Origin: a bacterium
GTDB taxonomy: Bacteria; UBA8248; JACPRG01; G963555815
Direction: 5' to 3'
Assembly: GCA_965261595.1 (NCBI GenBank)
Contig: CBDHDG010000001.1
Coordinates: 64,001 to 128,000 of the forward strand
Length of the DNA: 64,000 bases
In this document: positions 11,324-49,653 of the stretch, piece by piece
How positions within the stretch are numbered: the stretch's first letter is position 1
Layout: each line of letters starts with the position of its first letter
Made by a program: the position numbers and the translations under genes
Notes under the pieces: generated by a model
Told to the model about the DNA's origin: nothing
The model's database searches: none
What the model saw: only the letters and a program-made list of their open reading frames with translations

Positions 11324-11369
11324 TGGACCGCCCCTGGGTTATTGGACACTCGGGTGAGGGTATTCGACC

Positions 11370-12278: not shown

Positions 12279-12661
12279 CGCCTCCACCTCCTGCCGGCTA
12301 AAGGGCGGCCGGCCTCCAGGCGGTCGATCTTCTCCCGCAGGACCTCGCCCTCCATCGTGAGTTCGCCCACCTTGGCCTTGAGCCGGGCGTTCTCCTCGGC
12401 CCGCTCATCCGCCGGGCGGGCTTTGAGCGCCGCCTCGCCCCCGCGAAGGAACGCCTCGCGCCAGGCGGAAAGCCGAGCCGCTGTCGTGCCCAACTCGCGG
12501 CAGAGCGTCTCCAGGCTCTCGCCCCGCAAAAGACGCAGGACCGCCTCCCGCTTGCGCTGGCAGGAGAACCGACCCCGCTCACTGCGATGCCCTGGGGCCT
12601 TGGCTCCGTTCGCCCTGCGGGCGCCCTCCGCCAAAGCCCCCTCTTGCTTTTGTTCGTTCAT
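12275..12661 (-). CDS. IS3-family transposase OrfA (HTH)
   Basis: RFSCQRKREAVLRLLRGESLETLCRELG...W, ENARLKAKVGELTME zipper. Confidence 0.9.
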   Translation of the reverse strand: MNEQKQEGALAEGARRANGAKAPGHRSERGRFSCQRKREAVLRLLRGESLETLCRELGTTAARLSAWREAFLRGGEAALKARPADERAEENARLKAKVGELTMEGEVLREKIDRLEAGRPLAGRRWRR

Positions 12662-12727
12662 CGCGACACCCCTTTCTCCATGAATCATGGATCAATCGAG
12701 TGTCCAACAAAACCCTAGAGCGGGGGA

Positions 12728-14041: not shown

Positions 14042-14195
14042 GTCATATCCCATATCCTATGCCCGGCTTTCGTTCAGCAGGTCGAGAACAACCTTTCGCA
14101 CAAAAGCCGAGAAGGCCCGGCGGGGCTTCCATCGTCCCGCGTCCTAGCCGACACTTCCGTGGTCGCGCCTATACCGGTCGAATAAGGAGATCTTG

Positions 14196-31029: not shown

Positions 31030-31929
31030 GGGGATTATAAAGGTTTTGACACTAATTGAGTGAGATGTTGGACCACCAGGGGAAAGAGATCCTGGTGTCG
31101 GTGATTGTAACGGAATTCCATCTCCTTCAGGTAGAGGGGGAACCGCTCTTTGGACACCCCATGATGTTTGATGAGCCTCTCCTTGGCGTAGGCCCAAAAG
31201 CCTTCCAGGCCGTTGATGTGCACTTTGCCCCGACTGAAGCGCCGATCATGATCCACCCGCAAGTGGCGATAGCCGCAGAACATCAGGGCGTCATAGACCC
31301 GGTAGCGGTCGGTGTAGACCACGCTGCCCCGACGGACCAACTTCACGGTGGAGGCCAAAAGGGTCTGGGCCTTGACGTTGCCGACCGCCTCCACCTTCAC
31401 CCGGCCGCCCCGCTCCAATATGCCGAAAACAGGGACTTTACCCGCTGCGCCTCGGCCTCTCTTGCCCTTGCGCTTGCCCCCGAAGTAGGCCTCGTCCGCC
31501 TCCACCTCCCCTCGAAGAAGCTCCTGTCCCCCCGGCGTGCCGGCCACAAGACTGCGCCTGAGCGTCGTCACGGCCCGCAGCGCTGTCGGATAGCTCACGG
31601 CGAGTTGCTGGGCCATCTTGCGGGCCGAGACCTCCAGCTCAAAGAGCTTCACCACCCAAAGCCACTGCCGGGCCGAGAGGCGAAGTTGGCCCAGCCAGCG
31701 GCCCGTGAACGGCCCGAAGGTGTACCGACACCCAGCGCAGCGAAAGCGCCCCCGCGTGCCCAAAACGTAGCGTTTTCGACCCTCACAACGAGGGCAGATT
31801 TTACGCCCGTTTTTCTGACACGCCATGAGCAGATGGCGTCTCGCTGTAGCTTCCGATTTTACAAGGACTTCAAAGCTCTTCAGGTCCACGACACCAGCCT
31901 AATCCGGTGTCATATCTTTTACAATCGCC
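31030..31929 (-). mobile_element. IS1595-family insertion sequence (900 bp) with an 8-bp target duplication
   Basis: Imperfect TIRs ggggattataaaggttttgacact / ggcgattgtaaaagatatgacacc (18/24); TAATAAAA at 31022-31029 and 31930-31937. Confidence 0.93.
31035..31889 (-). CDS. IS1595-family transposase
   Basis: Zn ribbon CPRC...CAGC, HTH, VEADEAYFGG, GSVVYTD, HINGLEGFW, YLKEMEFRYN. Confidence 0.95.
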   Translation of the reverse strand: MDLKSFEVLVKSEATARRHLLMACQKNGRKICPRCEGRKRYVLGTRGRFRCAGCRYTFGPFTGRWLGQLRLSARQWLWVVKLFELEVSARKMAQQLAVSYPTALRAVTTLRRSLVAGTPGGQELLRGEVEADEAYFGGKRKGKRGRGAAGKVPVFGILERGGRVKVEAVGNVKAQTLLASTVKLVRRGSVVYTDRYRVYDALMFCGYRHLRVDHDRRFSRGKVHINGLEGFWAYAKERLIKHHGVSKERFPLYLKEMEFRYNHRHQDLFPLVVQHLTQLVSKPL

Positions 31930-33051: not shown

Positions 33052-33336
33052 GCTGGATCACTCCTGAGAACGAGACACTGCCTTTCACGCGATGGATTCA
33101 CCTGCGCCGCTTTGTCTTCTCGCCGACCGCACGAAATCCACCGCCTATCTTATCCGGATTTTTTTCCCGGAGGATAACCGAAATCTTGCGTGGCTTCTCG
33201 TGTCGGGGAAATGGTGACACGTATGATTCAGCAGCGCCGTCGGCGGTTTCGCCCCCACCCACAGCATGTTTCCCCCGCTCTAGGGTTTTGTTGGACACTC
33301 GATTGATCCATGATTCATGGAGAAAGGGGTGTCGTG

Positions 33337-33723
33337 ATGAACGAACAAAAGCAAGAGGGGGCTTTGGCGGAGGGCGCCCGTAGGGCGAACGGAGCCAAGG
33401 CCCCAGGGCATCGCAGTGAGCGGGGTCGGTTCTCCTGCCAGCGCAAGCGGGAGGCGGTCCTGCGTCTTTTGCGGGGCGAGAGCCTGGAGACGCTCTGCCG
33501 CGAGTTGGGCACGACAGCGGCTCGGCTTTCCGCCTGGCGCGAGGCGTTCCTTCGCGGGGGCGAGGCGGCGCTCAAAGCCCGCCCGGCGGATGAGCGGGCC
33601 GAGGAGAACGCCCGGCTCAAGGCCAAGGTGGGCGAACTCACGATGGAGGGCGAGGTCCTGCGGGAGAAGATCGACCGCCTGGAGGCCGGCCGCCCTTTAG
33701 CCGGCAGGAGGTGGAGGCGATGA
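33337..33723 (+). CDS. IS3-family transposase OrfA
   Basis: Same protein as the copy 1 OrfA. Confidence 0.9.
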   Translation: MNEQKQEGALAEGARRANGAKAPGHRSERGRFSCQRKREAVLRLLRGESLETLCRELGTTAARLSAWREAFLRGGEAALKARPADERAEENARLKAKVGELTMEGEVLREKIDRLEAGRPLAGRRWRR

Positions 33724-34628
33724 GTCAGGCCCGCTTCACCTCCACGGGCAGAGCCTACGGCCTGAAGCGGGTGTGCGCCCTTTGGGGCTTGGCGCGCTCC
33801 ACGGTCTACGCGCAACGGCGGCGAGAGGCGGTCCCCGTTCATGAACGCCCCACGCCCAATAAGCGCGGCCCTGTGGGCCCGTGCACCGATGCGGAACTCC
33901 TCGGCCACATCCGGCAGGTCCTGGAGGACTCTCCCTTCCATGGCGAGGGCTACCGCAAGGTGTGGGCGAGGCTGCGCTTCGCGGGCATCCGCACCAGCAA
34001 GGAGCGGGTGCGTCGCCTGATGCGGGAGGCGGGGCTTCAGGCCCCCCACCGGGTGGGCAAACCCCGAGGTCCCAAGGCCCACAACGGGACCATCCGCACC
34101 GAGCGGCCCGACCGAATGTGGGGCACGCACATGACGACGACGGTGACCACCGAGGAGGGGATGGCCTCGGTGTTCGTGGCGGTGGATCACTGCTCGGTGG
34201 ACTGCGTGGGGATCCATGCGGCCAAGAGCGGCAACCGCTTCGAGGCCCTGGAGCCGATCCGGCAGGGGGTCGCCGAGCGCTTCGCCGGCTTGGAGGCGGA
34301 CGTCGCCGAGGGGCTTAAAGTTCGTCACGACCACGGCCCCGCCTATCTGTCCGATGACTTTCAGCGGGAGATCGCCTACCTGGGCATGACCAGTTCGCCC
34401 AGCTTCGTGCGGGCGCCCGAGGGAAATGGCTACTGTGAGTGGTTCATCCGCATCTTGAAGGAGAATCTCCTGTGGGTGCGCTCTTTCGCCACCGTAGAGG
34501 AACTGCGGTGGGCGCTGCTTGAGTTCAAGAACCTGTACAACCATCATTGGATTCTCGAGGGCTACGGCTACCGAACGCCGGCCCAGGCAAGGCAGGAAAA
34601 ACTCGCTCAAGTTGCGGAGGCCGCATGA
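33720..34628 (+). CDS. IS3-family transposase OrfB (first catalytic Asp replaced by His)
   Basis: WGTHMTT here vs WGTDMTT in copy 1 (codon 34128-34130, CAC). Confidence 0.9.
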   Translation: MSQARFTSTGRAYGLKRVCALWGLARSTVYAQRRREAVPVHERPTPNKRGPVGPCTDAELLGHIRQVLEDSPFHGEGYRKVWARLRFAGIRTSKERVRRLMREAGLQAPHRVGKPRGPKAHNGTIRTERPDRMWGTHMTTTVTTEEGMASVFVAVDHCSVDCVGIHAAKSGNRFEALEPIRQGVAERFAGLEADVAEGLKVRHDHGPAYLSDDFQREIAYLGMTSSPSFVRAPEGNGYCEWFIRILKENLLWVRSFATVEELRWALLEFKNLYNHHWILEGYGYRTPAQARQEKLAQVAEAA

Positions 34629-34674
34629 GGTCGAATACCCTCACCCGAGTGTCCAATAACCCAGGGGCGGTCCA

Positions 34675-35121
34675 TGTTCGACGTATGGCTGGTCTTTCTT
34701 TTCGGGTTCGCGGGGTACGTCTTCCGCAAGCTCGACTACCCCCTAGAACCCTTGGTCCTGGCCCACGGCGGAGGAGCGCTTCCTTTCCTGATCGGCCGCC
34801 TCAACCTGGGTTACTACGCGCCCAAATATGAATTCAATACCGACTGCCAAAAAAACATCTCGCCCCCCCCCTGGGGAGTTCATCAAACAGCTTTATTTCG
34901 ACTCACTGGTCTCCAGCGGCGAATCCCTCCGGTTCCTGGTTGAGCTCGTCGGCGCGGATCGGGTGATGCTCGGGACGGACTTTCCCTTCGAAGTCGGCGA
35001 TTCGGAAGGGAAGGTGACGCTTCCGGTCGTCAACGAAATACCCGAGGCCGATCGGGGGAAAATCCTGTCGGGAAACGCGGCGGCGCTCCTGGCGGACGCG
35101 GGCGGCGGGAATAGCCATTGA
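34675..35121 (+). pseudogene. Chimeric relic: TctA permease fragment fused to an amidohydrolase_2 (ACMSD/LigW-like) C-terminus
   Basis: MFDVWLVFLFGFAGYVFRKLDYPLEPLVLA (TctA-like) joined to HGGGALPFLIGRL; then a frameshift to LYFDSLV...VGADRVMLGTDFPF...ILSGNA. Confidence 0.75.
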
Positions 35122-35163
35122 CATCCACCGATTTCCCAAGCCATTATAGTTGTCAGGCCAATT
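35118..35163 (+). promoter_or_regulatory. Sigma70 promoter plus FadR/PdhR-type operator upstream of the GntR gene
   Basis: TTGACA (35118) N18 CATTAT; AGTTGTCAGGCCAATT (35148-35163) resembles FadR-subfamily TGGT-N3-ACCA boxes. Confidence 0.55.
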
Positions 35164-35226
35164 CTCTGAGTGCTTGGCAGGACCCCCTGTCCGCCCCAAC
35201 CGGGCGGCGCGCAAGGTGCCCTTAGC

Positions 35227-36060
35227 TTGCAGCTTCAGGAAATCAAGAAGAGCCGGGTGTACGAGACCATCGTCACGCAGGTCCAAGACCTGATTGTCCG
35301 GGGGGACCTGAAAAACGGCGACCGCCTCCCGCCCGAAAGAGACCTCGTCGCGGCCTTCGGCGTGAGCCGGGCGTCGGTGAGAGAGGGCATCTGCGTCCTG
35401 GAATCCCTGGGGCTTGTGGAAAGCCGGGCGGGCAGCGGGACGTACGTCACGACGGCCAGCGTCGAGAACCTCATCCAGCCCCTTGCGCTCACCATCCTTC
35501 AGGAGCAGGACAGCATCCGGGAGATCTTCGAGGTCCGCCGGCTCATCGAGCCTCATCTGGCGGCTCTGGCAGCCGAGCGGGCGACGGAGGACGAAAGACA
35601 GGAGCTTCGGGCCATCGTTGAGCGCCACGGCGAGATACTGGACCGCGGCGAGACCGGGGCCGAGGCCGATGGGGAATTCCACCTCGCCATCGCCCGGGCG
35701 GCCCGCAACGCCGTGTTCCTGCGGCTGATCTTCGGCGTCCATGACCTTTTGCGGAAAAGCCGGGACCCCCGGTTTCAGACCGGCGGACGGCCGAAACAAT
35801 CCCTGAACGGCCACCTGGAAGTCCTGACGGCCATTGAGCGCGGCGACAGTGAGGGCGCACGCGGCGCCATGAACGCCCACTTGGCGACTGTGGAAGAATT
35901 CGTCTGGAAAAACATGCGGAAAGAGACCTCCGTGGCCGGAGGTCGGATTGGCCGGGCGGGCGTACCCCTGGCTCGGGCGGCCTCCGGGGCTCGCGCCGGG
36001 ACCAACAGAGGCCGGACCCGAGGGAGCGGCGCTGGACCGAGAGCAAAAAGAAAGGGTTGA
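35227..36060 (+). CDS. GntR/FadR-family transcriptional regulator
   Basis: GDRLPPERDL...GVSRASVRE...GLVE..GSGTYV, EVRRLIE, DGEFHLAIA..A.N, H..V..AI..GD; start uncertain (TTG 35227). Confidence 0.95.
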   Translation: MQLQEIKKSRVYETIVTQVQDLIVRGDLKNGDRLPPERDLVAAFGVSRASVREGICVLESLGLVESRAGSGTYVTTASVENLIQPLALTILQEQDSIREIFEVRRLIEPHLAALAAERATEDERQELRAIVERHGEILDRGETGAEADGEFHLAIARAARNAVFLRLIFGVHDLLRKSRDPRFQTGGRPKQSLNGHLEVLTAIERGDSEGARGAMNAHLATVEEFVWKNMRKETSVAGGRIGRAGVPLARAASGARAGTNRGRTRGSGAGPRAKRKG

Positions 36061-36107
36061 ACTCAAATGTCTGATCGAAACGCGGTAGCGCAACGGGAGA
36101 AGAGAGA

Positions 36108-37253
36108 ATGAGCATCGTCGCAGTCGAGATCGTCTACCGCGGCATCTTCCAGAAGCAGCTGGCCGGTAAGCTCAGCCGCTGCCTGGTCTTCGCAGCGCGG
36201 AAGGCGGGAAAGGTCGGAATCTCTTTCGGCCGTTACGGAGACTCTCCGGAGCGGAACGGGATACCGGCCAAGCAGTTCGCTTACATCGCGGACTCGCCCG
36301 AGGAACTGGAAGAGGTGGCCGCGCAGTACGAGCCCAAGTCGGTGGACGTGTCCATCGTGGCGGATGACACCCTGTGCAAGGGCGTCGAGTGCTGGGGGTG
36401 GTACGGTCTTCAGCCCATCAACGCCCTGACGAAAGAGAACGGCGTCCTGATCGTCACCTCCAAGAAAAAGCCCGAGGAACTCGTTCCGCACATTCACAAG
36501 AAGGACACGCCCTACCAGATCTGCGTCCTGGACGGCGAAGCCAGCTTCGCGGGCCTGTGGGTCTACAAAGATGACCACACCGACGCACGGATCCTGGGCG
36601 CCTTGGCGAAGGTCTGCCCCCAGCTTGCTGGCCTGACGGCCATGGAAGAGACCATCCGCGAGAACCTCAAGGATGAGGACGCCCTGGTGGAATCGGCCCG
36701 CTCCTCCCATGAGGACGCGAGCCTGACAACGGTCGATCCCGGAGAAGGCGAGCAGGAAGAACCCTTCAAGTTCGACTTGCCCGGCTGGAAGACCATGGAG
36801 GAGGGCCTGGTGGTCCGGGGAATCGATGTCGGCGGAGGCTTCCACGGCGAAGAGGGGGGCTACCAGCCCGGCCGCAACCCCTACTTCAAGAAGTGGAGCA
36901 CGCGCACCATGCGGCCGGTGGTCAACTTCGAGACGTGCACCAAGTGCACACTGTGCTGGATCGCCTGCCCGGATTCGTGCTTCGACGTCACACCCGAGCA
37001 CTACTACGACGCCAACATGGAATCCTGCTGCGGCTGCGGCGTCTGCGAGCAGATCTGTCCGGTGAAGGATTGCATCGTGATGGTCAACGAGACGGTCTTC
37101 ACCGACCGGGACAGCCAGTTCGAGATGTTCAAGGAGAACAAGGAAGAGTACGAGACGTGGCGGGCCGATGTGGTGGACGCGGGCCGCGTCGAAAACCGCA
37201 ACCCCGTGACCGGGTTCTCGCCGGCTTTTGGAGGACTTCCCCATGGCGCCTGA
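36108..37253 (+). CDS. 2-oxoacid:ferredoxin oxidoreductase fused gamma/delta subunit (OOR-like)
   Basis: Gamma-like N-terminus (RYGDSPER); WSTRTMRPVV, CTKCTLCWIACP and CCGCGVCEQICP for two [4Fe-4S] clusters. Confidence 0.9.
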   Translation: MSIVAVEIVYRGIFQKQLAGKLSRCLVFAARKAGKVGISFGRYGDSPERNGIPAKQFAYIADSPEELEEVAAQYEPKSVDVSIVADDTLCKGVECWGWYGLQPINALTKENGVLIVTSKKKPEELVPHIHKKDTPYQICVLDGEASFAGLWVYKDDHTDARILGALAKVCPQLAGLTAMEETIRENLKDEDALVESARSSHEDASLTTVDPGEGEQEEPFKFDLPGWKTMEEGLVVRGIDVGGGFHGEEGGYQPGRNPYFKKWSTRTMRPVVNFETCTKCTLCWIACPDSCFDVTPEHYYDANMESCCGCGVCEQICPVKDCIVMVNETVFTDRDSQFEMFKENKEEYETWRADVVDAGRVENRNPVTGFSPAFGGLPHGA

Positions 37254-38457
37254 GACCGCCGTCCTCGAGCGCGAGGAGCTCATCAGCGGGAGTGAAGCCA
37301 TCGCCCACGCCTGCCGCCTGGCCGACGTGGACGTCATCACCGCCTACCCCATCCGGCCCTATGACACGGTCATGCAGTGCGTCGCCAAGATGATCGCCGA
37401 CGGCGACATGGACGCCGACTACATCGTGGCCGAGAGCGAGCACTCCCAGTTCGAGATCGTCAAGCACGCATCCGCCGTCGGAGCAAGGGTCTTCACCGGC
37501 AGCAGCGGTGTGGGCTGGTTCTACGCCATGGAGGCCCTGGCCGTGACGGCGGGGCTTCGTATTCCCGTCGTCGCCATGGTGGGCAACCGCGCCCTGGACG
37601 ACCCGGGGGCCTTCGGCACCGAGCACAACGACGCCCTGGCCGTCCGGGACCTGGGGTGGATGCTGACCTGGGTGGACACCGCCCAGGAGGCCCTGGACAC
37701 CGCCCTCATGGCCTTCCGGGTGGCCGAGAGCCGGGACGTCATGCTCCCCTGCGCCATCGCCACCGACGGGGCATTTCTCACCCACAGCCAGTCGCTGGTC
37801 ATGGTGCCCGACAAGGAGTCCGTGGACAATTACCTGCCCCCCTATGACCGGGGCGAGCTCCGGCTTCATCCCGACAACCCCATCACCATCGCCCCCCAGG
37901 TCAACGAGGACTGGCTGATGGAGATGCGCAAGCAGAGCGACGAGGGGATGAAGCGGGCCCGGGGCGTCCTGGAGGCGGCCCACGCCGATCTCCGGGCCAA
38001 ATTCGGCCGGGGCGGAGAATCCCCCTATCTGGAAGAGTACATGACCGAAGACGCCGACGCCGTCCTGGTCGGCATGGGGACCCTGGCCCTGCCCGTCCGG
38101 GTGGCCGTCCGCAAGGCCCGGGAGGCCGGCAAGAAGATCGGCTTCGTCCGCGTCAAGTGGTTCCGGCCCTTCGGCACCGAGCCCATCCAGGAATGCCTGA
38201 GCAAGTTCAAGGCGGTGGGCGTCGTGGATCGGGATTATTCGTTCGGCTCTCCGAACTGCGGCGGGGTGTTGTACACCGAGATCCGCTCCGCCCTCTACGA
38301 CGCGGACGCGCGTCCTCACGTCCTGGGGTACATCGCCGGATTGGGCGGCCGAGAGGTGACGCTCGGGACAACGAATGAGATCATCAACCAGACACTGGCC
38401 GCGGCGGCCGACGGAAAGGTCGAGGAAGCCGTGCGCTGGGTCGATGTGAGGGAGTAA
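37243..38457 (+). CDS. 2-oxoacid:ferredoxin oxidoreductase alpha subunit (OOR-like)
   Basis: SGSEAIA, AYPIRPY, ESEH, GARVFTGSSGVG, NRAL, FRPF, GLGGRE. Confidence 0.93.
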   Translation: MAPETAVLEREELISGSEAIAHACRLADVDVITAYPIRPYDTVMQCVAKMIADGDMDADYIVAESEHSQFEIVKHASAVGARVFTGSSGVGWFYAMEALAVTAGLRIPVVAMVGNRALDDPGAFGTEHNDALAVRDLGWMLTWVDTAQEALDTALMAFRVAESRDVMLPCAIATDGAFLTHSQSLVMVPDKESVDNYLPPYDRGELRLHPDNPITIAPQVNEDWLMEMRKQSDEGMKRARGVLEAAHADLRAKFGRGGESPYLEEYMTEDADAVLVGMGTLALPVRVAVRKAREAGKKIGFVRVKWFRPFGTEPIQECLSKFKAVGVVDRDYSFGSPNCGGVLYTEIRSALYDADARPHVLGYIAGLGGREVTLGTTNEIINQTLAAAADGKVEEAVRWVDVRE

Positions 38458-38462
38458 AGGAA

Positions 38463-39464
38463 ATGGCGGAAGACACCGCAATCCAGGTTCTCGAACCGAT
38501 CAAGAAGCTCAAGAACATCCCCCTCAAGCTGGTGGAGGAGTATTACACTTCCGGCCACCGGACGTGCCAGGGTTGCGAGTCGGCCCTGGTGATGAAGCTC
38601 ATGGCCAAGGCCGCCGGCCCCCGGACCATCATCCTCGGGAGCACCGGCTGTATGTACGTGGCCAACACCACCTACTACTCTACGCCATGGGTGGTGCCGT
38701 GGATGCACACCCAGCTCGGCTCCTCGGGCTCGGCCGCGACGGGGACCGCCGCCGGGCTTCGCGCGCTGATGCGCAAGGGCAAGATCGCCGAGGAGCCCAT
38801 CAACGTCATCGCCTTCTGCGGCGACGGCGGGGGGATGGATATGGGCATCGCGTCCATCTCGGCCGCCCTCCAGCACACCGAGTACAACCTGCTCATCATC
38901 ATGTACGACAACGAGTCCTACGCCAACACGGACATCCAGGCGTCCGGGGCCTCCCCCTGGGGGGTGAACACCACGTTCACCCCGCCGGGAAAGAAGCACC
39001 GGATCCTCCAGACCCGCTGGAAGAAGAACATGGCCGGGATGATGGCCGTCGGACATCCGGAGTGCCGCTACGTGGCCACGGCCGACGCCTCCTATCCCAC
39101 GGACCTCATCGACAAGGTCCGCAGAGGCCTCAGCATCCCGGGGCCGGCCTTCCTCCACACCCTCGACCCCTGCCCCAAGGGGTGGGACTACGACCCTTAC
39201 TTCTCCCACGAGCTGGGGGAACTGGCCTGCGAAACGGGGATCTGGCCGCTGTTCACGTGCGAGGACGGCAAAATCACCTACCAGAAGCCCACCCGGAACC
39301 TCATCAACGGCTACAAAAAGCGCAAGCCGGTCCGGGAATACATGGAGAAACAGGGCCGCTTCGCCCACTTCACCGATGAGGATTACGACTACTTCCAGGC
39401 GAAGATCGACAAGCAGTGGGAGACGTGGACCGTTCCCGGCGCCATTCCGATCCTCAAGGATTGA
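38463..39464 (+). CDS. 2-oxoacid:ferredoxin oxidoreductase beta (TPP-binding) subunit
   Basis: GHRTCQGC, TGCMYVANT, GDGG...YDNESYANT, PCPKGW, QGRFAHF. Confidence 0.93.
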   Translation: MAEDTAIQVLEPIKKLKNIPLKLVEEYYTSGHRTCQGCESALVMKLMAKAAGPRTIILGSTGCMYVANTTYYSTPWVVPWMHTQLGSSGSAATGTAAGLRALMRKGKIAEEPINVIAFCGDGGGMDMGIASISAALQHTEYNLLIIMYDNESYANTDIQASGASPWGVNTTFTPPGKKHRILQTRWKKNMAGMMAVGHPECRYVATADASYPTDLIDKVRRGLSIPGPAFLHTLDPCPKGWDYDPYFSHELGELACETGIWPLFTCEDGKITYQKPTRNLINGYKKRKPVREYMEKQGRFAHFTDEDYDYFQAKIDKQWETWTVPGAIPILKD

Positions 39465-39496
39465 GCGGGGCGGAGACCGCACACTGACGCACGCCG

Positions 39497-39531
39497 GGGC
39501 CTCCGGGAGACTTTCTCCCGGAGGCCCTTTT
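39497..39531 (+). terminator. Rho-independent terminator ending the OFOR operon
   Basis: gggcctccgggaga-ctt-tctcccggaggccc followed by tttt. Confidence 0.85.
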
Positions 39532-39787
39532 GCTTTCAGGGCCCAAGCCGCCCGCCGCCACCTTGCAACACCCCCCTATTGTCATTCCCGCGCAGACATG
39601 CCCCGATGAAAACCGGGTATGACCAAGGGGTCCAGGTGGGCTCAGCCTCCAATCCATGAGAGAATAATTCGCGTATCGGTTCATTTCGGTTGAACCGAAC
39701 CCATCGGCGGGCAGCGCACATCCAACAGGAGAGTCCCCGGGACGCCGTAGGGCCGCGAGGGAGGGAGGGGGGGGGAGGGGAGAATCC

Positions 39788-41851
39788 GTGGCTGAAGAGA
39801 GGCAGTTGGACGATCTCGCTGTCAACACCATCCGCACACTCTCGATGGACGCCGTTCAGGAAGCGGGCTCCGGCCACCCCGGCACAGCCATGGCCCTGGC
39901 GCCCGTGGTCTATCGCCTCTGGCAGCGACACCTCCGTTTCGACCCCGCCGACCCCATCTGGCCCAACCGGGACCGCTTCGTCCTCTCCATCGGCCACGCC
40001 TCGATGCTCCTCTATTCCCTCCTTCACCTGTGCGGCGTCAAGGCCGTCAACCCCATGTACGAAACCCTCGGGGAGCCGTCGGTCACACTCGACGACATCA
40101 AGCGGTTCCGGCAGCTCGACAGCAAGTGTCCCGGCCACCCCGAATATCGCTGGACTTCCGGCGTGGAGACGACGACCGGGCCCCTCGGCCAGGGCGTGGC
40201 GACCAGCGTGGGCATGGCCGTCGCCGAAAGGTGGATGGCCGCGCACTTCAACCGGCCGGGGTTCGAGATGTTCGACTACGACGTCTACGCCCTTTGCGGC
40301 GACGGTTGCATGATGGAGGGGGTCTCGGGCGAAGCCGCGTCCCTGGCGGGCCATCTCAAGCTCTCCAACCTGTGTTGGATCTACGACAACAACAAGATCA
40401 CCATCGAGGGCCACACGGCGTGGGCCTTCTCCGAGGACGTCGCGACCCGGTTCATCGGCTACGGCTGGAACGTCACGCGCGTCGGAGACGCCAACGATCA
40501 AGAGATGCTCGGCCGGGCGTTCGAGACCTTTCGGCAAACCGGCGACCGGCCGACCCTCGTCATCGTGGACAGCCACATCGCCTACGGCTCGCCGCACAAG
40601 CAGGACACCCACGCCGCCCACGGCGAACCCCTGGGCGATGAGGAGATCCGCCTGACCAAAAAGAACTACGGCTGGCCGCAGGACGCCAAGTTCCTCGTCC
40701 CCGAAGGCGTCCGCGAGCACTTTGAAGCGGGGATCGGAAGACGCGGCGGCGCGCTCCGCGCCGCGTGGATGGCCCGGTTCGATGAATACCGCGCGCTTCA
40801 CCCCGATTTGTCCGACCATCTCTACAAGATGCAGCACCGCCGACTGCCCGACGGGTGGGACCGGAACCTGCCCGAGTTTCCGCCGGACGCCAAGGGCCTC
40901 GCCAGCCGGGAATCCTCCGGAAAGGTCCTCAACGCCCTGGCGGAAAACGTGCCGTGGCTTATCGGCGGCTCGGCGGACCTGGCCCCATCCACCAAGACCC
41001 GCCTGACGTTCGGGGGGGCGGGGGACTTCTCCGCGGATGACCGCGCCGGCCGAAACCTCCACTTCGGCGTCCGCGAACACGCGATGGCGTCCATCCTGAA
41101 CGGGCTCTCCCTCAGCAAGGTCCGCCCCTACGGGTCCGGGTTCCTGATCTTCAGCGATTACTCCCGGCCCGCGATCCGGCTGAGCGCCCTGATGGAGATC
41201 CCGGTCATCTACATCTTCACCCACGACTCCATCGGCGTCGGCGAGGACGGCCCGACACACCAGCCCGTCGAGCACCTGACTTCCCTCCGGGCCATTCCCG
41301 GGCTGATCACCCTGCGGCCGGGCGACGCCAACGAAGTCGCCGAGGCGTGGCGGGTCATCGCCGGGCTCCGCCACGAGCCGGTGGCGTTGGTCCTCTCCCG
41401 GCAAGCGCTTCCAACGCTGGACCGCTCGAAATACGCCCCGGCCGCCGGCGTGGCGAGGGGCGGATATGTGTTGGCGGACGCCGAAGACGGCCGGCCGGAG
41501 GTCCTCCTTCTCGCAAGCGGCAGCGAGGTGTCCCTTTGCGTCGAAGCCTTCGAGGAATTAAAGTCCGAAGGCGTCCGGGCCCGCGTCGTGAGCCTGCCGT
41601 CCTGGGAGCTGTTCGACCGGCAGGACGCGGCGTACCGGGAAAGCGTCCTTCCCGCCGAGGTGACCGCCCGGCTCTCCGTGGAACAGTCAGCCACGCTCGG
41701 CTGGGACCGCTACGTCGGCCTCCGCGGGCGGAGCATCGGGATGAAGACCTTCGGGGCCTCGGCGCCGCTGAAGGAATTGCAGAAAAGATTCGGATTCTCG
41801 CCCGGCCGCGTCGCCGCCGCGGCCAAAGACCTCCTGACGAAAACGGGGTAA
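39788..41851 (+). CDS. tkt: Transketolase
   Basis: SGHPG, RDRFVLSIGH, GHPEY, TTGPLGQG, GDGCMMEG, FGVREHAM, THDSIGVGEDGPTHQPVE. Confidence 0.98.
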   Translation: MAEERQLDDLAVNTIRTLSMDAVQEAGSGHPGTAMALAPVVYRLWQRHLRFDPADPIWPNRDRFVLSIGHASMLLYSLLHLCGVKAVNPMYETLGEPSVTLDDIKRFRQLDSKCPGHPEYRWTSGVETTTGPLGQGVATSVGMAVAERWMAAHFNRPGFEMFDYDVYALCGDGCMMEGVSGEAASLAGHLKLSNLCWIYDNNKITIEGHTAWAFSEDVATRFIGYGWNVTRVGDANDQEMLGRAFETFRQTGDRPTLVIVDSHIAYGSPHKQDTHAAHGEPLGDEEIRLTKKNYGWPQDAKFLVPEGVREHFEAGIGRRGGALRAAWMARFDEYRALHPDLSDHLYKMQHRRLPDGWDRNLPEFPPDAKGLASRESSGKVLNALAENVPWLIGGSADLAPSTKTRLTFGGAGDFSADDRAGRNLHFGVREHAMASILNGLSLSKVRPYGSGFLIFSDYSRPAIRLSALMEIPVIYIFTHDSIGVGEDGPTHQPVEHLTSLRAIPGLITLRPGDANEVAEAWRVIAGLRHEPVALVLSRQALPTLDRSKYAPAAGVARGGYVLADAEDGRPEVLLLASGSEVSLCVEAFEELKSEGVRARVVSLPSWELFDRQDAAYRESVLPAEVTARLSVEQSATLGWDRYVGLRGRSIGMKTFGASAPLKELQKRFGFSPGRVAAAAKDLLTKTG

Positions 41852-41854
41852 GAC

Positions 41855-42337
41855 ATGCGCGTCGCGATGGGAGCCGATCACGCCGGGTTCGAGCTGAAGC
41901 GGACCTTGGCCGACCATGTGCGTGGACTCGGGCATGAAGTCGAGGACCTGGGGACCGGAAGCGCCGAACCGGTGGATTATCCCGACTTCGCCGAAGCCGT
42001 GGGCGTCGCCATTCGCGAGGACCGGGCGGATCGCGGAATCCTCGTCTGCGGCAGCGGCGTGGGCGCCTCCATCACGGCCAACAAGCTCCCCGGGATTCGG
42101 GCCGGCCTGTGTCATGACGTCTATTCCGCGCGCCAGGGCGTCGAGCACGATGAAATGAACATCCTGGTGATGGGGGCGCGCGTGATCGGACCCGAGCTGG
42201 CCCGGGACCTGGTCCGCTCTTTTCTGGACACGAAGTTCACCGGAGAGGAACGCCACCGCCGGAGACTCGGGAAACTCAACGCGATTGAGAAGCGCTACGG
42301 AGGGGCCGGCTCGGGCCCGGAGGAAGAAGCGCCATGA
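41855..42337 (+). CDS. rpiB: Ribose-5-phosphate isomerase B
   Basis: [30 protein letters not shown]. Confidence 0.96.
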
Positions 42338-45186
42338 ACCCTTTGAAAGCGCTGAGCGAATACGGCCAGTCCGTCTGGCTGGACTACATCCGCCGGAACC
42401 TCATCGCGACGGGCGAGCTGAAGCGTCTCATCGAGGAAGACGGCCTGGCGGGCGTCACGTCGAATCCGGCCATCTTCGAGAAGGCCATCACCGGGAGCAC
42501 GGATTACTCCGAAGACCTGGCCGCCTTGCAGGAACAGGACTTCGACCCCACGTCGGTCTTCGAGCGGCTGGCGGTCCGGGACATCCAGGACGCCGCCGAT
42601 GTCTTGAGGCCGCTCTTTGATCGAACCAACCGCCGCGACGGATTCGTCAGCCTGGAGGTCTCCCCGTACAAGGCCAACGAGACCGAGGCCACCATCGAGG
42701 AGGCGAGGCGGCTCTGGTCGGCCGTCGGGCGCGAGAACCTCATGATCAAGGTCCCGGCCACCCCGGCCGGCCTCCCCGCCATCGAGACGCTCATTGGCGA
42801 GGGGATCAACGTCAACATCACCCTCCTCTTCGCCCGGGAGGCCTACGAACGGGTCGCCGAGGCCTATCTCCGGGGACTCGAAGCCCTGAGCGCGAAGGGC
42901 GAAGACCCGGGCCGCGTGGCGAGCGTCGCCAGCTTCTTCATCAGCCGGATCGACGCCGCGATTGAAGCCATCGTCAAGGTCCGGCTCAAATCCGTCGCCG
43001 AACCGGCCGAACGGGAGCTGCTCAAAAGCCTGCCCGGCAAGGTCGCCATCGCCAACGCCAAGCTCGCCTACCGGCAATACAAGTCCATCTTCAGCGGAGA
43101 CCGCTGGCGGGCCCTGGCGGATCGGGGGGCGCGGACACAGCGACTTCTGTGGGCCAGCACGAGCGCCAAGAACCCGAGTTACCGGGACGTGATCTACGTC
43201 GAGGAGCTCATCGGCCCCGATACGGTGAACACCATTCCGCCGGCCACCCTGGACGCGTTCCGGGATCACGGCCGCCCGCGCGCGAGCCTGGAAGAGGACG
43301 TCGACGCCGCGCAGGATGCGATGGACCGCCTCGAAGCGGCGGGCATCTCGATGAAAGACGTCACCGACAAGCTTCTCGAAGACGGCGTGCGGCTCTTCGC
43401 CGAGGCCTTCGACAAATTGTTGGCCGCGGTGAACAAGCGGTGCCGGGTGGTCGTGGACGCCCAGATCAACCGCCAACGCCACTCCCTGTCGGAAGCGGAC
43501 GCCGCGCGGGTCCAGGCGACGCTCGATGACTGGAAGCTCACCGGGAAGGTCCTGAGGCTCTGGACGCGGGACGCGACCCTGTGGACAGGCATGGACGAAG
43601 GAAAATGGCTCGGGTGGCTCGGCGTCACGGAAGACCAGCTCGCCCACGGCCAACACCTGCGGGACCTGGCCGATGAGGTGAAGGCCGACGGGTTTTCCCA
43701 TGTGGCGCTGTTAGGGATGGGCGGCTCCAGCCTGTGCCCGGAAGTCCTCAGAAAGACGTTCGGCCGGATCGAGGGGTTCCCCGAGCTGCAGGTCCTCGAT
43801 TCCACCGACCCCGCCCAGGTCAAGGCGCTCGAAAACCGGATCGACCCGGCCGACACCCTGTTCATCGTGTCCAGCAAATCGGGGAGCACGCTGGAGCCCA
43901 ACATTTTCAAGCAATATTTTTTCGAGCGGGTCCGGGAGGCCATCGGCGCGGACCGGGCGGGGGACCGGTTCATCGCCGTCACCGACCCCGGATCAAAACT
44001 CGAAGCCATCGCGGAGGAGGACGGCTTCCGCCACATTTTCCACGGCGATCCGAGCATCGGCGGCCGGTACTCCGCCCTGTCGAACTTCGGGATGGTCCCG
44101 GCGGCCGCGATGGGCCTGGACGCGCTGAAGCTCCTGGACAGCGCGGACGAGATGGCCGTCTCTTCCTCCTCCTGTCTGCCCGCGGACGAGAATCCCGGCG
44201 TGGTCCTGGGAGCGGCCCTGGGCGTCCTGGCCCAGGGGGGGCGGGACAAGGTGACGCTCATCGCCTCGCCGGGCATTGAGGCTCTCGGGGCCTGGATCGA
44301 ACAGCTGATCGCCGAGTCCACCGGGAAGGATGGCCGGGGTCTCATCCCCGTGGACCGGGAGCCCCTGGGACCGCCGGATGTGTACGGCGACGACCGGATC
44401 TTCGTCTACGAACGGCTGGAATCCGCCCCGGACGCCTCCCAGGACGCGGCGGTCTCGGCCCTCGAGGAGGCCGGACATCCCGTCCTCCGGTTCTCCGTCG
44501 CCGAGCCCCATGACCTGGGGCAGGAGTTTTTCCGCTGGGAGCTCGCCACGGCCGTTGCGGGATCCATTCTCGGAATCAATCCCTTCGATCAGCCGGACGT
44601 GGAGGCCGGCAAAGCGGCGACCCGGGAGCTGATGGCGGAATACGAGAAAACGGGCGCCCTCCCTCCGGAGACCCCCATCTTCGAAGAAAAAGGCGTCAAG
44701 TTGTTCGCGGATGAGCAGAACGCCATTTCGCTCTGGACAACGGTGACCTCCCATCCATCCCTCGCCGCATATCTCGGGGCGCACCTCGACCGGATCGAGG
44801 CGGGGGATTACTTCGCGCTGCTTGCGTATATCGAGATGAAGGACGCCCACGAAGGACCGCTCCAGACAATGCGCCGGGCGGTTCGCGACCATCGCCGCGC
44901 GGCCACCTGTCTGGGATTCGGCCCGCGCTTCCTCCATTCAACCGGGCAGGCGTACAAGGGCGGTCCGAACACCGGGGTTTTCCTGCAAATCACGTGCGAC
45001 GACGCGCAAGACCTGCCGGTCCCCGGCCAGCGGTTTACTTTCGGCGCCGTGAAGGCCGCGCAGGCCCGGGGCGACTTCCAGGTTCTGGCCGAGCGGGATC
45101 GGCGCGCCCTTCGGGTCCACCTGGGCGAAGACGTAACGGCCGGGCTGGAGATTTTGCAAACCGCCATCCTCCAAACGACAGGGTAA
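42334..45186 (+). CDS. Bifunctional transaldolase / glucose-6-phosphate isomerase fusion
   Basis: N-terminal [31 protein letters not shown]-terminal [30 protein letters not shown]. Confidence 0.95.
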
Positions 45187-45256
45187 GACAAAGCGGCGGA
45201 CCGCCCGGACCCTTTGCGGTCCCGGGTGCGGTCTCTTCCGGAAAGGAGCGGCGACG

Positions 45257-46242
<986 letters not shown>

Positions 46243-46246
<4 letters not shown>

Positions 46247-47790
46247 AGAAGATGGCGCACGGGCGGGAGACGGGCGCGGGCGAAGAACCGGCGGGAAAAA
46301 CGGCCGACCCCTGTGTCATGGTGATCTTCGGCGCGTCCGGGGACCTGACCAAGCGAAAGCTCATCCCGGCCCTCTACAACCTGGCGAGCCAGAATCTGCT
46401 CTCGGAAAACTTCGCCGTCATCGGCTTCGCCCGGCGCGAGATGAGCACGGAAGACTTCCGGGAGAAACTCAGCCGGGAGATCGGGGAGTACGCCACCGGC
46501 CCGATCGATCCTGAGCTCTGGCGACGGTGCGTCGACCGGATCCACTACTTTTGCGGCAACCTGGGGGACGCGGACGCTTACGGGCGGCTGCAAAACCTCC
46601 TTTCCGAGCTGGAGGTGAAGCACAACACCCGGGGCAACATCCTCTACTACTTGGCGACCGCGCCCGATTTCTTCTCTCCGGTGACCCGATGCCTGGGCGA
46701 CGCCGGGTTGGTCCGCGAGGAGGAGGGCGCTTGGCGGCGCGTCATCTTTGAAAAACCGTTCGGGCGGGACCTCCAATCGGCGAAGACCCTCAATCAGGAC
46801 ATCCGGCAGGTCCTGGACGAGGGCCAGATCTATCGCATCGACCATTATCTGGGCAAAGAAACCGTCCAGAACATCATGGTCTTCCGGTTCGCCAACGGCA
46901 TTTTCGAGCCCATCTGGAACCGCCGCTATATCGATCACGTCCAGATCACCGTGGCCGAGCGTTTGGGGGTCGAGCAGCGCGGCGGTTACTACGACGAGTC
47001 CGGCGCGCTTCGGGACATGGCGCCCAACCACATCTGTCAACTGATCAGTCTGACGGCCATGGAGCCCCCCATCTCCTTCGAAGCGGACGCCGTCCGGGAT
47101 GAGCAAGCCAAGATCCTACGGGCCATCCAGCCCCTGTCCTCCGAAGAAGTGCTCACCCGAACCGTCCGGGGGCAATACGGAGAAGGGACAGTGGACGGAG
47201 CGCGCGTCCCCGGGTATCGCGGCAAGGAGCGGGTGCCGGACGACTCCGGCACGGAAACCTATGTGGCGTTGAAACTGTATATCGACAACTGGCGCTGGGC
47301 CGGGGTGCCCTTTTACATCCGCACGGGGAAGAGCCTTCCCGTTCGGCGCACGGAAATCACCATCCAGTTCAAGCGCGCCCCGTTCATCCTGTTCCGGAAT
47401 ACGCCGGTCGAGACCCTGACGCCGAACCAGCTCGTCCTCCAACTCCAGCCCGACGAAGGCATCTCCTTGAGCTTCGGGGCCAAGGTCCCCGGACCGATCG
47501 TCAACGTCGGCACGGTCGACATGAGCTTTCATTACGAAGACCACTTCGGGATCACCCCCAGCACCGGGTACGAGCGGTTGCTTTACGACGGCATGCTCGG
47601 GGACGCGACGCTGTTCCAGCGCGCGGACATGGTGGAGGCCGGCTGGGCCGTGGTGGAACCGATCCTCGACGTATGGAAGGCCCTGCCACCGCGCGATTTC
47701 CCCAACTACACCGCGGGCGAATGGGGGCCGAAGGGGGCGGATGAGCTGATGGCGCGGGACGGACGTGAATGGAGGGCTTCCGACGAATGA
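46243..47790 (+). CDS. zwf: Glucose-6-phosphate 1-dehydrogenase
   Basis: [32 protein letters not shown]. Confidence 0.97.
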
Positions 47791-48776
47791 TCCTGGCGGG
47801 CGACGTCGGCGGCACGAACGCGAGGCTGGCGATCTACGATGTGGAACACGGAAAACCCAAGCCCCTGGCATTGGAGGTCGTTCCCACCCGTCTCTATGGG
47901 AGCTTCCGGGAAGTCGCCGCCGGGTTCATGGAAAGACACGCCACGCCCGTTGAGCGGGCCTGCTTCGGCGTCGCCGGTCCGGTCAAGGACGGCCGGGCCG
48001 ATCCCCCGAACCTGGAGTGGGAATTCGATGAAGAACGCCTCGCGGACGAGTTGGGGTTGAAGAAGGTCTACCTGGTCAACGACCTCGTCGCCAACGCGCA
48101 CGGGATCGCCGCGCTCGAGGAGGAGGATTTCGCCCCGCTCAACGCGGGCGAGCCGCTCGAAGGGGGCGCCCGCGCCCTGATTTCCCCCGGCACCGGACTC
48201 GGCGAGGCCGGGCTGATCCGACTCGGCGGCCACCACCGGCCGTTTCCTTCCGAGGGCGGACACACCGATTTCGCGCCCCGCGATGAGCTCGAAATCGCGC
48301 TCCTCCAATTCCTCCTCACCGACCTGGAGCACGTCAGTTACGAGAGCGTCCTTTCCGGCGCCGGTCTCCACAGGATTTATCAATTCCTCCGCGAGACGGG
48401 CCGGGCGGAGGAGCCCGCGTGGCTGGCCGGCCGGATCCGGGCCGAGGACCCCGCCGCCGTCATCTCCACGGTTGCGCTGGAAGACGGTTCGGAGTTGTGC
48501 GTCCGGGCGCTGGACCTGTTCGTGTCGATCCTTGGAGCGGAGGCCGGAAACCTGGCGCTCAAGGTCTTCGCGACCGGAGGCGTATTCATCGGCGGAGGCA
48601 TCGCGCCGAAAATCCTTCCCAAGCTGAAGGCGCCGACGTTCATGAGAGCCTTCACCGCCAAGGGAAGGATGAAGGCGCTGCTCCGCTCGATACCCGTCCA
48701 TGCCATTTTGAACGACAAAACGGCCCTGTTGGGCGCGGCGCGATATGCCGGGCTGCAAGGAGCACAGCCTGAATAG
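47787..48776 (+). CDS. glk: Glucokinase (Glk family)
   Basis: [40 protein letters not shown]. Confidence 0.95.
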
Positions 48777-48888
48777 CGAAGGGTGGCGTCCCCGGCGGGG
48801 ACAGGCCCAACCGGGTCGAGTTTTAAAATGGCCCTCCGGAAGATCTCCCTTGCCTTTCCGCAACCCGCGGCAAGTGAAACGGCCATCC

Positions 48889-49653
48889 ATGTCATCCCCC
48901 GAACGAGAGATAGAGATCCTGGACGACCCCGAGGCCATGACCCGCCGGGCGGCGGCGGAATTCGTCCGTCTGGGGGAGGATGCGGTCCGGGCGAAGGGGC
49001 GGTTCACGGTCGCCCTCTCGGGCGGGTCCACCCCCAGGGCCCTCTATACACTCCTGGCAAGCGATGGGGCGCCGTATCGGTCCCGGATCCCTTGGGGGCA
49101 AACCCATTTATTCTGGGGAGATGAACGGCACGTTCCCGCCGACCATCCCGAGAGCAACTTCCGCATGGTCCATGAAGCCCTCCTGTCCCGGGCGCCCGTC
49201 CTGGCGGAAAACATCCATCGAATCCGGGCTGAAAATCCCGATGCCGAAGCGGCGGCCCGAGACTATGAAACGTCCCTCCGGGATTTTTTCGGCCTGAAGG
49301 CGGGAGAGCCGCCCCGGTTCGATCTGGTCTTGCTGGGGATGGGGGCGGATGGACACACTGCGTCGATCTTTCCGGGAACCGGCGTGATCGCCGAGGCGGA
49401 CCGTCTCGTCGCGGCCCCTTGGGTCGGAAAATTCAGCGCCCGCCGAATCACCCTGACGCCGCCCGTCCTGAACAACGCGGCCTGCGTCCTCTTTGTCGTC
49501 GGCGGAGCGGAGAAGGCGGACGCGCTGCGCGCCGTCCTGTCCGGAGCGTTCAATCCCGGCCGCTTCCCCGCCCAGATCGTCATTCCCGCAAAGGGAAGAC
49601 TTCACTGGCTGGTGGACCGGGCGGCCGCGGGCCGTTTGGAAAAAGGGGGATGA
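48889..49653 (+). CDS. pgl: 6-phosphogluconolactonase (DevB type)
   Basis: LSGGSTP, FWGDERHVP, SNF, LLGMGADGHTASIFP, RITLT. Confidence 0.95.
   Translation: MSSPEREIEILDDPEAMTRRAAAEFVRLGEDAVRAKGRFTVALSGGSTPRALYTLLASDGAPYRSRIPWGQTHLFWGDERHVPADHPESNFRMVHEALLSRAPVLAENIHRIRAENPDAEAAARDYETSLRDFFGLKAGEPPRFDLVLLGMGADGHTASIFPGTGVIAEADRLVAAPWVGKFSARRITLTPPVLNNAACVLFVVGGAEKADALRAVLSGAFNPGRFPAQIVIPAKGRLHWLVDRAAAGRLEKGG

Follow-up and report, generated by a model that had tools for sequence, protein, structure and literature searches.

The 64,000-nucleotide window analyzed here, a stretch of contig CBDHDG010000001.1 from a bacterial genome of 6.17 Mb (96.7% complete), carries at 36108-39464 on the + strand three open, closely spaced genes for the fused gamma/delta, the alpha, and the beta subunits of a 2-oxoacid:ferredoxin oxidoreductase (OFOR). 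Judged by its sequence, this operon is a real, intact, and regulated OFOR from a large clade placed outside the recognized oxalate oxidoreductase (OOR) family, as its sister. Coordinates are those of the window, in which the operon genes and the regulator all lie on the + strand. A preliminary description of the stretch had proposed a three-gene OFOR with a fused gamma/delta subunit, placed behind a GntR-type regulator and followed by its own terminator, and had quoted the motifs YPIRP, NRALDDPGAFG, and EIVYRGIFQK. The open reading frames (ORFs), the Pfam domains, and the hairpin were all found, and the motifs are present as written. The features are as follows:

35118..35147, + strand: sigma-70-like promoter match, TTGACA-18 nt-CATTAT (10/12 positions; 1 site versus 0.4 expected in shuffles, a consensus match only)
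35170..36060, + strand: FCD-domain GntR-family regulator, upstream of gamma/delta (Pfam GntR 5.2e-18, FCD 3e-30)
36108..37253, + strand: fused gamma (domain III-like)/delta (two [4Fe-4S]) subunit, 381 residues (Pfam Fer4 dicluster, Fer4_21, in the C-terminal part)
37228..38457, + strand: alpha subunit ORF, 409 residues from a TTG start (POR_N 2.9e-58 and PFOR_II 1.4e-27)
38463..39464, + strand: beta subunit, 333 residues, with the thiamine diphosphate (TPP) site and the proximal [4Fe-4S] cluster (TPP_enzyme_C 5.3e-14)
39496..39528, + strand: intrinsic-terminator-like hairpin and T-run, a 15-pair stem with 11 G-C pairs and then TTTTGCTTTCA, 32 nt past the beta stop

The Pfam domain set of the OFOR superfamily is present, with POR_N and PFOR_II in alpha and TPP_enzyme_C in beta. 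Because its closest homologues have 404 residues, alpha likely starts at the ATG at 37243, which gives 404 residues (37243..38457). The true start of the regulator is probably later than the listed ORF start, for example at the TTG at 35227; its best NCBIfam matches are LldR, NanR, PdhR, and GlcC, all of them below cut-off.

Among the NCBIfam equivalog models, those of OOR (NF045790, NF045791, and NF045792; EC 1.2.7.10) rank first for all three subunits, with 385.6 bits against a cut-off of 500 for alpha, 348.4 against 590 for beta, and 94.4 against 230 for gamma/delta (OOR delta model). In a phmmer search of solved structures, the best match of each subunit is again OOR (5c4i), namely chain A for alpha (7.6e-101), chain C for beta (5.4e-86), and chain B for gamma/delta (5.3e-17). 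For phylogeny, a HMMER scan of 1.84 billion cluster representatives was made, the 150 best matches were taken, and 20 of them were run through NCBIfam. The tree holds 112 alpha rows, that is, the window, 14 locus alphas, and 97 representatives (370-430 residues, or 680-720 residues, first 400 residues); the other 53 representatives (fragments and other lengths) were left out, and the tree comes from a quick IQ-TREE search with SH-like approximate likelihood-ratio test (SH-aLRT) support only. Its OOR superclade comprises 23 rows (SH-aLRT 99), inside which the clade of the window is monophyletic, with 19 rows (100). P0127 is sister to this clade (94), followed by P0129 with P0186 (86), and all PorA-like representatives are set apart from it by a branch with a support of 99. 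The expectation of an OOR-clade relative was thus borne out by the phylogeny that had been suggested as a check, the clade not falling inside the PorA-like representatives.

P0129 is the only one of the 20 representatives tested to score above the OOR alpha cut-off (583.1 versus 500), and it reads YPIRPYTA and ADRTLDPPGDFG, as in Moorella OOR; its type is referred to below as Asp116-type. P0121, the representative of the clade of the window, scores 399.1, and P0127 scores 385.4. The latter, 49% identical to the window alpha, reads FPIRPYTG and, with its switch residue being Asn, DDPGNFA; it constitutes a third OOR-like type.

The clade is large and widespread. Of 8000 candidates scored in a word-indexed search, 5451 proteins reached E 1e-30 or better, with 70-96% identity for the best 120. 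In the genome collection, 165 relatives were confirmed; the 80 best, 62-91% identical and without exception from metagenome-assembled genomes (MAGs), were retained, and their labels are Nitrospinota, Chloroflexota/Dehalococcoidia, Alphaproteobacteria (Pseudomonadota), Methylomirabilota, and Acidobacteriota. These 80 loci (numbered with L) and the window make up the 81 on which the conservation counts are based. None of the papers on oxalate oxidoreductase that were consulted describes this clade.

In the window alpha, YPIRP occupies residues 40-44 and NRALDDPGAFG residues 120-130. The phmmer alignment to 5c4i_A pairs OOR R109-T-L-D112-P113-P-G-D116-F-G with window R121-A-L-D124-D125-P-G-A128-F-G, and the OOR switch Asp116 is Ala128 in the window, with Asp125, three residues earlier, standing at OOR Pro113. 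Asp116 is described as the key residue of the bait-and-switch mechanism of OOR, in which Arg31 of YPIRP binds oxalate and Arg109 is a conserved Arg (PMC5020499). Both substrate Args have their counterparts (Arg31/Arg43 and Arg109/Arg121), each in 81/81. The changed active site that had been read from the sequence, with Ala for the catalytic Asp and an Asp three residues earlier, is what the alignment gives, and the replacement is fixed across the clade: Arg43, Arg121, Asp125, and Ala128 each occur in 81/81 alphas and Asp124 in 80/81. Since YPIRPYD and GNRALDDPGAFG are invariant in all 81 alphas, across several phyla, these motifs are not due to chance.

The beta and delta parts are conserved to the same extent. 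Beta keeps GDGG...DNESYANTD, with Asp157, in 79/79 covering rows, so that YANTDIQ is found in all of them where OOR and PFOR (pyruvate:ferredoxin oxidoreductase) read NTG. Cys35, Cys38, Cys63, and Cys237 of beta are conserved (76-79 of the covering rows), and both CxxCxxCxxxCP motifs are present in 81/81 gamma/delta sequences. By alignment to 5c4i, this Cys set would provide the ligands of one proximal and two ferredoxin-type [4Fe-4S] clusters.

The gamma domain is that of an enzyme resembling OOR, as had also been proposed. Residues 7-16 of gamma/delta are EIVYRGIFQK, and YRG[VI]FQK is found in 78/78 covering rows. The alignment of the gamma part with OOR, which begins at residue 8, shows no Gly-rich stretch, and the corresponding OOR segment is ARGVVMNK; the match to the PorC_KorC profile starts only at profile position 16, and the window gamma/delta has no Pfam POR match at E 0.001. 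At this place, the PFOR loop presumably reads GxGGQG. Domain III binds coenzyme A (CoA) in PFOR (PMC13768988), and CoA is needed by all OFORs except OOR (PMC12337175). OOR has one fused gamma/delta chain and a domain III without the Gly-rich CoA loop, as is found here. Because its gamma part resembles that of OOR and is without this loop, the window enzyme may reasonably be taken, by analogy, to be independent of CoA, a deduction rather than a finding. A search for the pattern G.GG[QEDA]G around the other OFOR of the genome (C4) found none, so the genome offers no comparator.

The closest known system is the OOR of Moorella thermoacetica (EC 1.2.7.10; PDB 5c4i, 5exd, and 5exe). It shares with the window enzyme the three chains with gamma and delta fused, the YPIRP Arg, the second Arg (R109/R121), the Phe-Gly after the switch position, the gamma part without a Gly-rich loop, the two CxxCxxCxxxCP motifs, the four beta Cys, and GDGG...DNESYANT. 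The window enzyme differs in having Ala for Asp116, Asp for Pro113, Asn for Asp108, and Asp for Thr33, in its beta motif (NTD instead of NTG), and in the length of gamma/delta (381 residues versus 315). The hosts differ as well, the clade being found in MAGs of five phylum labels and Moorella OOR in an acetogen.

Neighbouring genes offer a second line of information on the substrate. ORFs called from the 80 loci and from a 20-kb part of the window were clustered by all-against-all BLASTP; shadow ORFs were dropped using a cross-locus score, and the cluster representatives were annotated with Pfam and NCBIfam. The core order is regulator, gamma/delta, alpha, and beta, present in 68, 81, 81, and 79 of the 81 loci, respectively. 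An orthologous regulator stands directly upstream in the 68, and at least two of the beta-less loci (L010 and L036) end at or just past alpha. The most frequent partner is an OFA-family transporter of the major facilitator superfamily (MFS), found in 35/81 loci, mostly directly downstream of beta on the same strand. It passes the oxalate/formate antiporter model TIGR04259 (480.8 versus 335) and also the L-lactate transporter model (327.7 versus 320). TctC, TctB, and TctA each occur in 10/81 loci, and a small ferredoxin with a GltD-like flavoprotein in three (L015, L023, and L024).

The clade MFS aligns to OxlT (8hpj) at 1.1e-64. OxlT holds oxalate by Arg272 and Lys355, together with Gln34, Tyr35, Tyr124, and an aromatic shell (PMC10070484). 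Gln34, Tyr35, Tyr124, Arg272, Trp324, and Lys355 are kept in 34-36 of the 37 neighbour MFS; positions 150 and 328 hold Tyr or Phe, and Tyr replaces Trp352. A lactate transporter from the same PDB search has Cys at the place of Lys355. Taken together, the recurrent neighbours (FCD regulator, OxlT-type antiporter, and TctCBA) suggest oxalate or a very similar small dicarboxylate.

Two further candidates for known oxalate enzymes were tried and rejected. The 560-residue TPP enzyme found at six loci was considered as Oxc, but its best matches are sulfoacetaldehyde acetyltransferase and acetolactate synthase, below cut-off. The CoA-transferase III of some loci was considered as Frc, for which it scores 242.8 against a cut-off of 504.2.

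The Asp116-type clade, known from soil metagenomes, provides a useful comparison. When metagenomes were scanned with P0129, 584 stretches were confirmed, the best 80 of which were kept (L083-L162; 86-98% identical). It resembles the clade of the window in belonging to the OOR superclade, in YPIRP, in its FCD regulator and OFA family, and in a gamma N-terminus without a Gly-rich loop. Unlike the window clade, it keeps ADRTLDPPGDFG in alpha and NTG in beta. It also has a separate 216-residue gamma, recognized by Pfam POR (in 43 of the 80 loci), and a 610-residue GltD-like Pyr_redox_2/Fer4_20 protein between gamma and alpha (71), whereas in the window clade gamma/delta directly precedes alpha. 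Alpha is found in 80 of these loci, beta in 79, the FCD regulator in 37, a CDC48-like AAA ATPase, often upstream, in 32, and the OFA transporter (TIGR04259, 481.5 versus 335) in 21; three small ORFs, one of them receiver-like, follow beta. Only its alpha is above the OOR cut-off, beta (441.7/590) and gamma (171.8/230) being below, and on these scores the Asp116-type clade is also not a proven OOR. Its partner set of a GltD-like NAD(P)-type flavoprotein and a CDC48-like double-AAA ATPase upstream (for example, in L121, L129, and L154) is an observation in its own right, and the Asp116-type enzyme may be an NAD(P)-linked oxalate oxidoreductase.

The regulators of the two clades are close. For 69 regulators, the median best identity between the two clades is 60% over 228 residues (range 26-88%); the window regulator is 42% identical to the Asp116-type ones, and mostly 42-50% identical to those of its own clade beyond L001 and L003. 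Because regulator and transporter families are shared, the same or a very similar effector and substrate are suggested for the two clades.

Public sequencing runs give some information on expression. Twenty runs hold the stretch or part of it, six of which are RNA libraries. Four metatranscriptome runs from four studies were considered as assembled contigs at least 95% alike to the window. In each of the four, contigs tile about 35170-39490. Single contigs bridge the regulator and gamma/delta (35828-36775, 35213-36579, and 35485-36726), gamma/delta and alpha (37013-37455), and alpha and beta (37138-38669). Contig cover is nil at 34781-35142 in the four runs, limited at 39487-39667 to a trace (0.1) in X18 and nil in the others, and almost nil beyond, gaps that carry no weight. 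These contigs give a hint of expression in close strains and no more than that.

The preferred reading is that the window enzyme is a CoA-free oxalate:ferredoxin oxidoreductase with a relocated acid, to which we assign a probability of about 0.5. What we infer here comprises the substrate, the CoA independence, the electron acceptor, and the residue that replaces Asp116. Oxalate would be held between Arg43 (YPIRP) and Arg121 and attacked by the TPP ylide, with the release of one CO2. The resulting carboxy-TPP would be oxidized in two one-electron steps, via the proximal cluster of beta and the two clusters of delta, to an external ferredoxin, and the second CO2 would be released without CoA. 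The role of Asp116 would probably be taken by a clade-specific acid, either Asp125 or Asp46 of alpha, or Asp157 of beta (NTD). The FCD regulator would control the operon in response to the substrate. Oxalate is favoured over oxamate because the OxlT-type transporter keeps the oxalate-binding residues and because of the regulator and TctCBA neighbours. Oxalate, which the preliminary description had held only as a fallback, has in this way become the better-supported substrate, and the survey of 81 loci favours it or a very similar small dicarboxylate.

Several points weigh against this reading. The switch residue of OOR is missing from every alpha of the clade (Ala at the Asp116 position in 81/81), and all three subunits lie below the OOR cut-offs. 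In a comparison of the clade with the Asp116-type one (80 alphas and 72 betas), 50 positions of alpha and 45 of beta proved to be fixed in each clade yet different between them; as only two clades are involved, such fixed differences represent one evolutionary event and not statistical covariation. In the two active-site loops, the differences (this clade/Asp116-type) are D46/T, N120/D, D125/P, A128/D, and N134/T, with D157/G in beta. Since D46, D125, and beta D157 are fixed where the other clade differs, the acids around the active site appear to be rearranged, not simply lost. Some of the neighbours do not name oxalate: a CoA-transferase III in 11/81 loci (best matches YfdE and Frc, below cut-off), an AMP ligase in 7/81 (no model passes cut-off), an ALS/Xsc-like TPP enzyme in 6/81 (not Oxc), and, in 4/81, all Dehalococcoidia, a flavin mononucleotide (FMN)-dependent 2-hydroxyacid dehydrogenase. 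In the two closest relatives of the window (L001 and L003), the operon is preceded by a hydantoinase/oxoprolinase gene and followed by a Liv-type ABC transporter. Acidobacteriota account for most of the 35 OFA-linked loci, which are thus not independent; in L015 and L024, both from Alphaproteobacteria, the transporter is placed differently, and independent associations are few. In the genome itself, the search found no Oxc, Frc, or OxlT above cut-off, and no dedicated transporter survives. RNA libraries can contain DNA, and a contig over two genes does not amount to a single transcript. In the literature searched, no assay was found for any enzyme of this clade or of the Asp116-type clade from soil. 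Finally, the two enzyme types adjoin on four contigs (L156, L158, L159, and L160), which suggests that they are not simply redundant.

The details of these contigs bear on the choice of substrate. L158 and L160 have an Ala128-type alpha within a few kb of the Asp116-type operon, L156 has an NTD-type beta beside it, and L159 has, along with another regulator, a gamma/delta of the clade type that is 87-90% identical to the acidobacterial ones. In L159 and L160, each operon has a separate regulator. Among five genomes reached via clade loci, one has both types (584.4 and 363.6 bits), two have two copies of the clade enzyme, and two have one. The partner modules of the neighbouring types differ, with a ferredoxin-like delta in this clade versus a GltD-like flavoprotein in the Asp116-type one. 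The two types could either use the same substrate with different acceptors or use different substrates.

The latter option leads to the main alternative, possible but less probable than oxalate, in which an enzyme of the same fold, also CoA-free, would act on another very small 2-oxoacid: glyoxylate (giving formate and CO2), oxamate (giving carbamate and CO2), mesoxalate, or hydroxypyruvate. In that case, Asp46, Asp125, and beta Asp157, together with the absence of Asp116, would adapt the shape of the pocket to a non-carboxylate distal group. The remodelling of the active site by fixed changes, the Asp116-type enzyme next door on four contigs, and the paralogues within genomes would suit it, as would the formyltransferase and Frc-like CoA-transferases of some loci, and the allantoinase-like and XdhA-like genes of the window. 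The FMN-dependent dehydrogenases, which stand directly downstream in the four Dehalococcoidia loci, we take to be capable of making glyoxylate. Against it, both substrate Args are present in 81/81, which suits a dianion; the linked OFA transporters retain Arg272 and Lys355, the pair to which both carboxylates of oxalate bind; and no purine/ureide family is found among the annotated recurrent neighbours. A narrower form, somewhat more doubtful still, is that the Ala128/beta-Asp157 clade is a second kind of CoA-free OFOR, for glyoxylate or oxamate, beside the Asp116-type oxalate enzyme in the same regulon. Such a two-carbon substrate other than oxalate would explain the adjoining operons with their own regulators on four contigs and the three moved acidic residues.

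Oxamate, taken alone, is highly improbable. The preliminary description had preferred it on account of purine/ureide-type enzymes in the window, a suggestion for which the context gives no support, though the sequence itself would allow it. Such genes do exist: an allantoinase/dihydroorotase-like gene at 23250-24665 (TIGR03178, 366.9 versus 357.85), a second cyclic amidohydrolase, an XdhA-like molybdoenzyme (700.8, below 780) with its FAD subunit, and a creatininase-family gene; subunits resembling carbon monoxide dehydrogenase and glyceraldehyde dehydrogenase lie at 49.8-53.6 kb. The ureide-type genes at 17-25 kb are more than 11 kb from the enzyme, inside a segment bracketed by IS3 insertion sequences. 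Among the annotated recurrent neighbour families of 160 related loci, none is a purine/ureide enzyme, with the possible exception of one GGT-family gene, which occurs in 4/80 Asp116-type loci and scores as gamma-glutamyltransferase.

It is equally improbable that the operon encodes an ordinary CoA-dependent PFOR or 2-ketoisovalerate:ferredoxin oxidoreductase (VOR). Such an enzyme would agree with the public names, since those given by the sources in the word-indexed search are all 'pyruvate ferredoxin oxidoreductase', the only label that the clade so far carries where source names exist. It would also agree with PorA_Arch (355.3 bits, cut-off 550) and PorB (276.3, cut-off 405) as second-best NCBIfam models, and with the PFOR of Methanosarcina acetivorans (9bt4; 2.7e-67 for alpha and 1.7e-59 for beta) as the second-best solved relative, a four-subunit enzyme (PorABCD) sharing the OFOR fold and cofactors. 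Nevertheless, the PorA/PorB scores are below both their cut-offs and the OOR scores. PFOR, which, unlike OOR, needs CoA (PMC12337175), has a YPITP-type Thr where the window has Arg, NRAVSAPINIW (9bt4_B) instead of the DDPGAFG loop, and separate gamma and delta. With a gamma part lacking both the Gly-rich loop and a Pfam POR match, and a separating branch of support 99, the window enzyme falls outside PorABCD/VorABCD on these criteria.

The region directly upstream suggests how the locus has evolved in this genome:

about 33229-33270, left of the IS3 copy: left part of a tctA relic, about 14 codons
33271..34674, + strand: IS3-family element of 1404 nt inside the tctA relic (HTH_Tnp_1, HTH_21, and rve_3)
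34671..34763, + strand: right part of the tctA relic, about residues 417-447 (tblastn 77% over 31 residues to TctA of L034 and L042, E 9e-11)
34764..35121, + strand: C-terminal relic of Amidohydro_2, last third (PF04909 2.4e-10, profile positions 216-287 only)

The two tctA flanks read on from each other across the IS3 element, with a few bases repeated at the ends, and total about 45 codons (about residues 405-447); they match the TctA of Tct transporters linked to this enzyme in Methylomirabilota loci. The amidohydrolase relic, an in-frame fusion to the tctA relic that is frame-shifted near a C-run at about 34862-34875, stands directly upstream of the regulator and has no counterpart in the 80 related loci. 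No further TctA, TctB, or TctC match at E 1e-30 was found in the genome, nor any second OOR-like enzyme. Because a tctA relic lies upstream and no Tct is left, the ancestral layout was probably Tct transporter, regulator, and enzyme, as in L006 and L014, the uptake system having since decayed. If oxalate is the substrate, it may be produced internally or taken up through an unrecognized carrier. That the operon itself is a decaying remnant without a present role, having lost its transporter and lying between insertion sequences and a housekeeping pentose-phosphate operon, would fit the two relics, the IS3 insertion, and the loss of Tct homologues, but is hardly credible given that all four genes are open, that all cofactor motifs and clade-invariant residues are intact, and that four RNA libraries contain contigs matching it.

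In soils and waters, oxalate commonly serves as a source of carbon and electrons, and the genes counted in surveys of its breakdown are frc, oxc, and oxalate decarboxylase. A large survey of the gut notes that it did not consider OOR (PMC8062136). If the preferred oxalate reading is true, the clade would constitute an uncounted CoA-free oxalate route that supplies electrons of low potential in lineages that are not known to be strictly anaerobic. To enzymologists, the clade offers a natural experiment on the 'bait and switch' of OOR, in which the switch Asp has been lost and other acids have arisen.

Other features of the window lie outside this operon. A second IS3 copy at 11324-12727 is inverted and 100% identical to that at 33271-34674, with 20543 nt between the arms, and the segment looks like a composite-transposon-like or invertible one. 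These 20.5 kb hold an SfMCT-like MFS, short-chain dehydrogenases/reductases, the two cyclic amidohydrolases, the XdhA-like molybdoenzyme, an ABC transporter, and an IS1595 element (31035-31889). The MFS (14193-15470) passes the L-lactate transporter (SfMCT) model at 375.2 versus 320 and does not pass that of OxlT (192.3 versus 335); among the OFA members of the genome, it alone scores above 110 bits to OxlT.

Downstream of the terminator lies a pentose-phosphate operon with tkt, rpiB, a tal-pgi fusion, gnd, zwf, glk, and pgl (39788-49653). A long, G-rich purine run, GAGGGAGGGAGGGGGGGGGAGGGGAGAA, at 39757-39787 abuts the transketolase start codon. The fusion, a transaldolase-phosphoglucose isomerase of 950 residues (42334-45186), is thus found within a complete pentose-phosphate and glucokinase operon.

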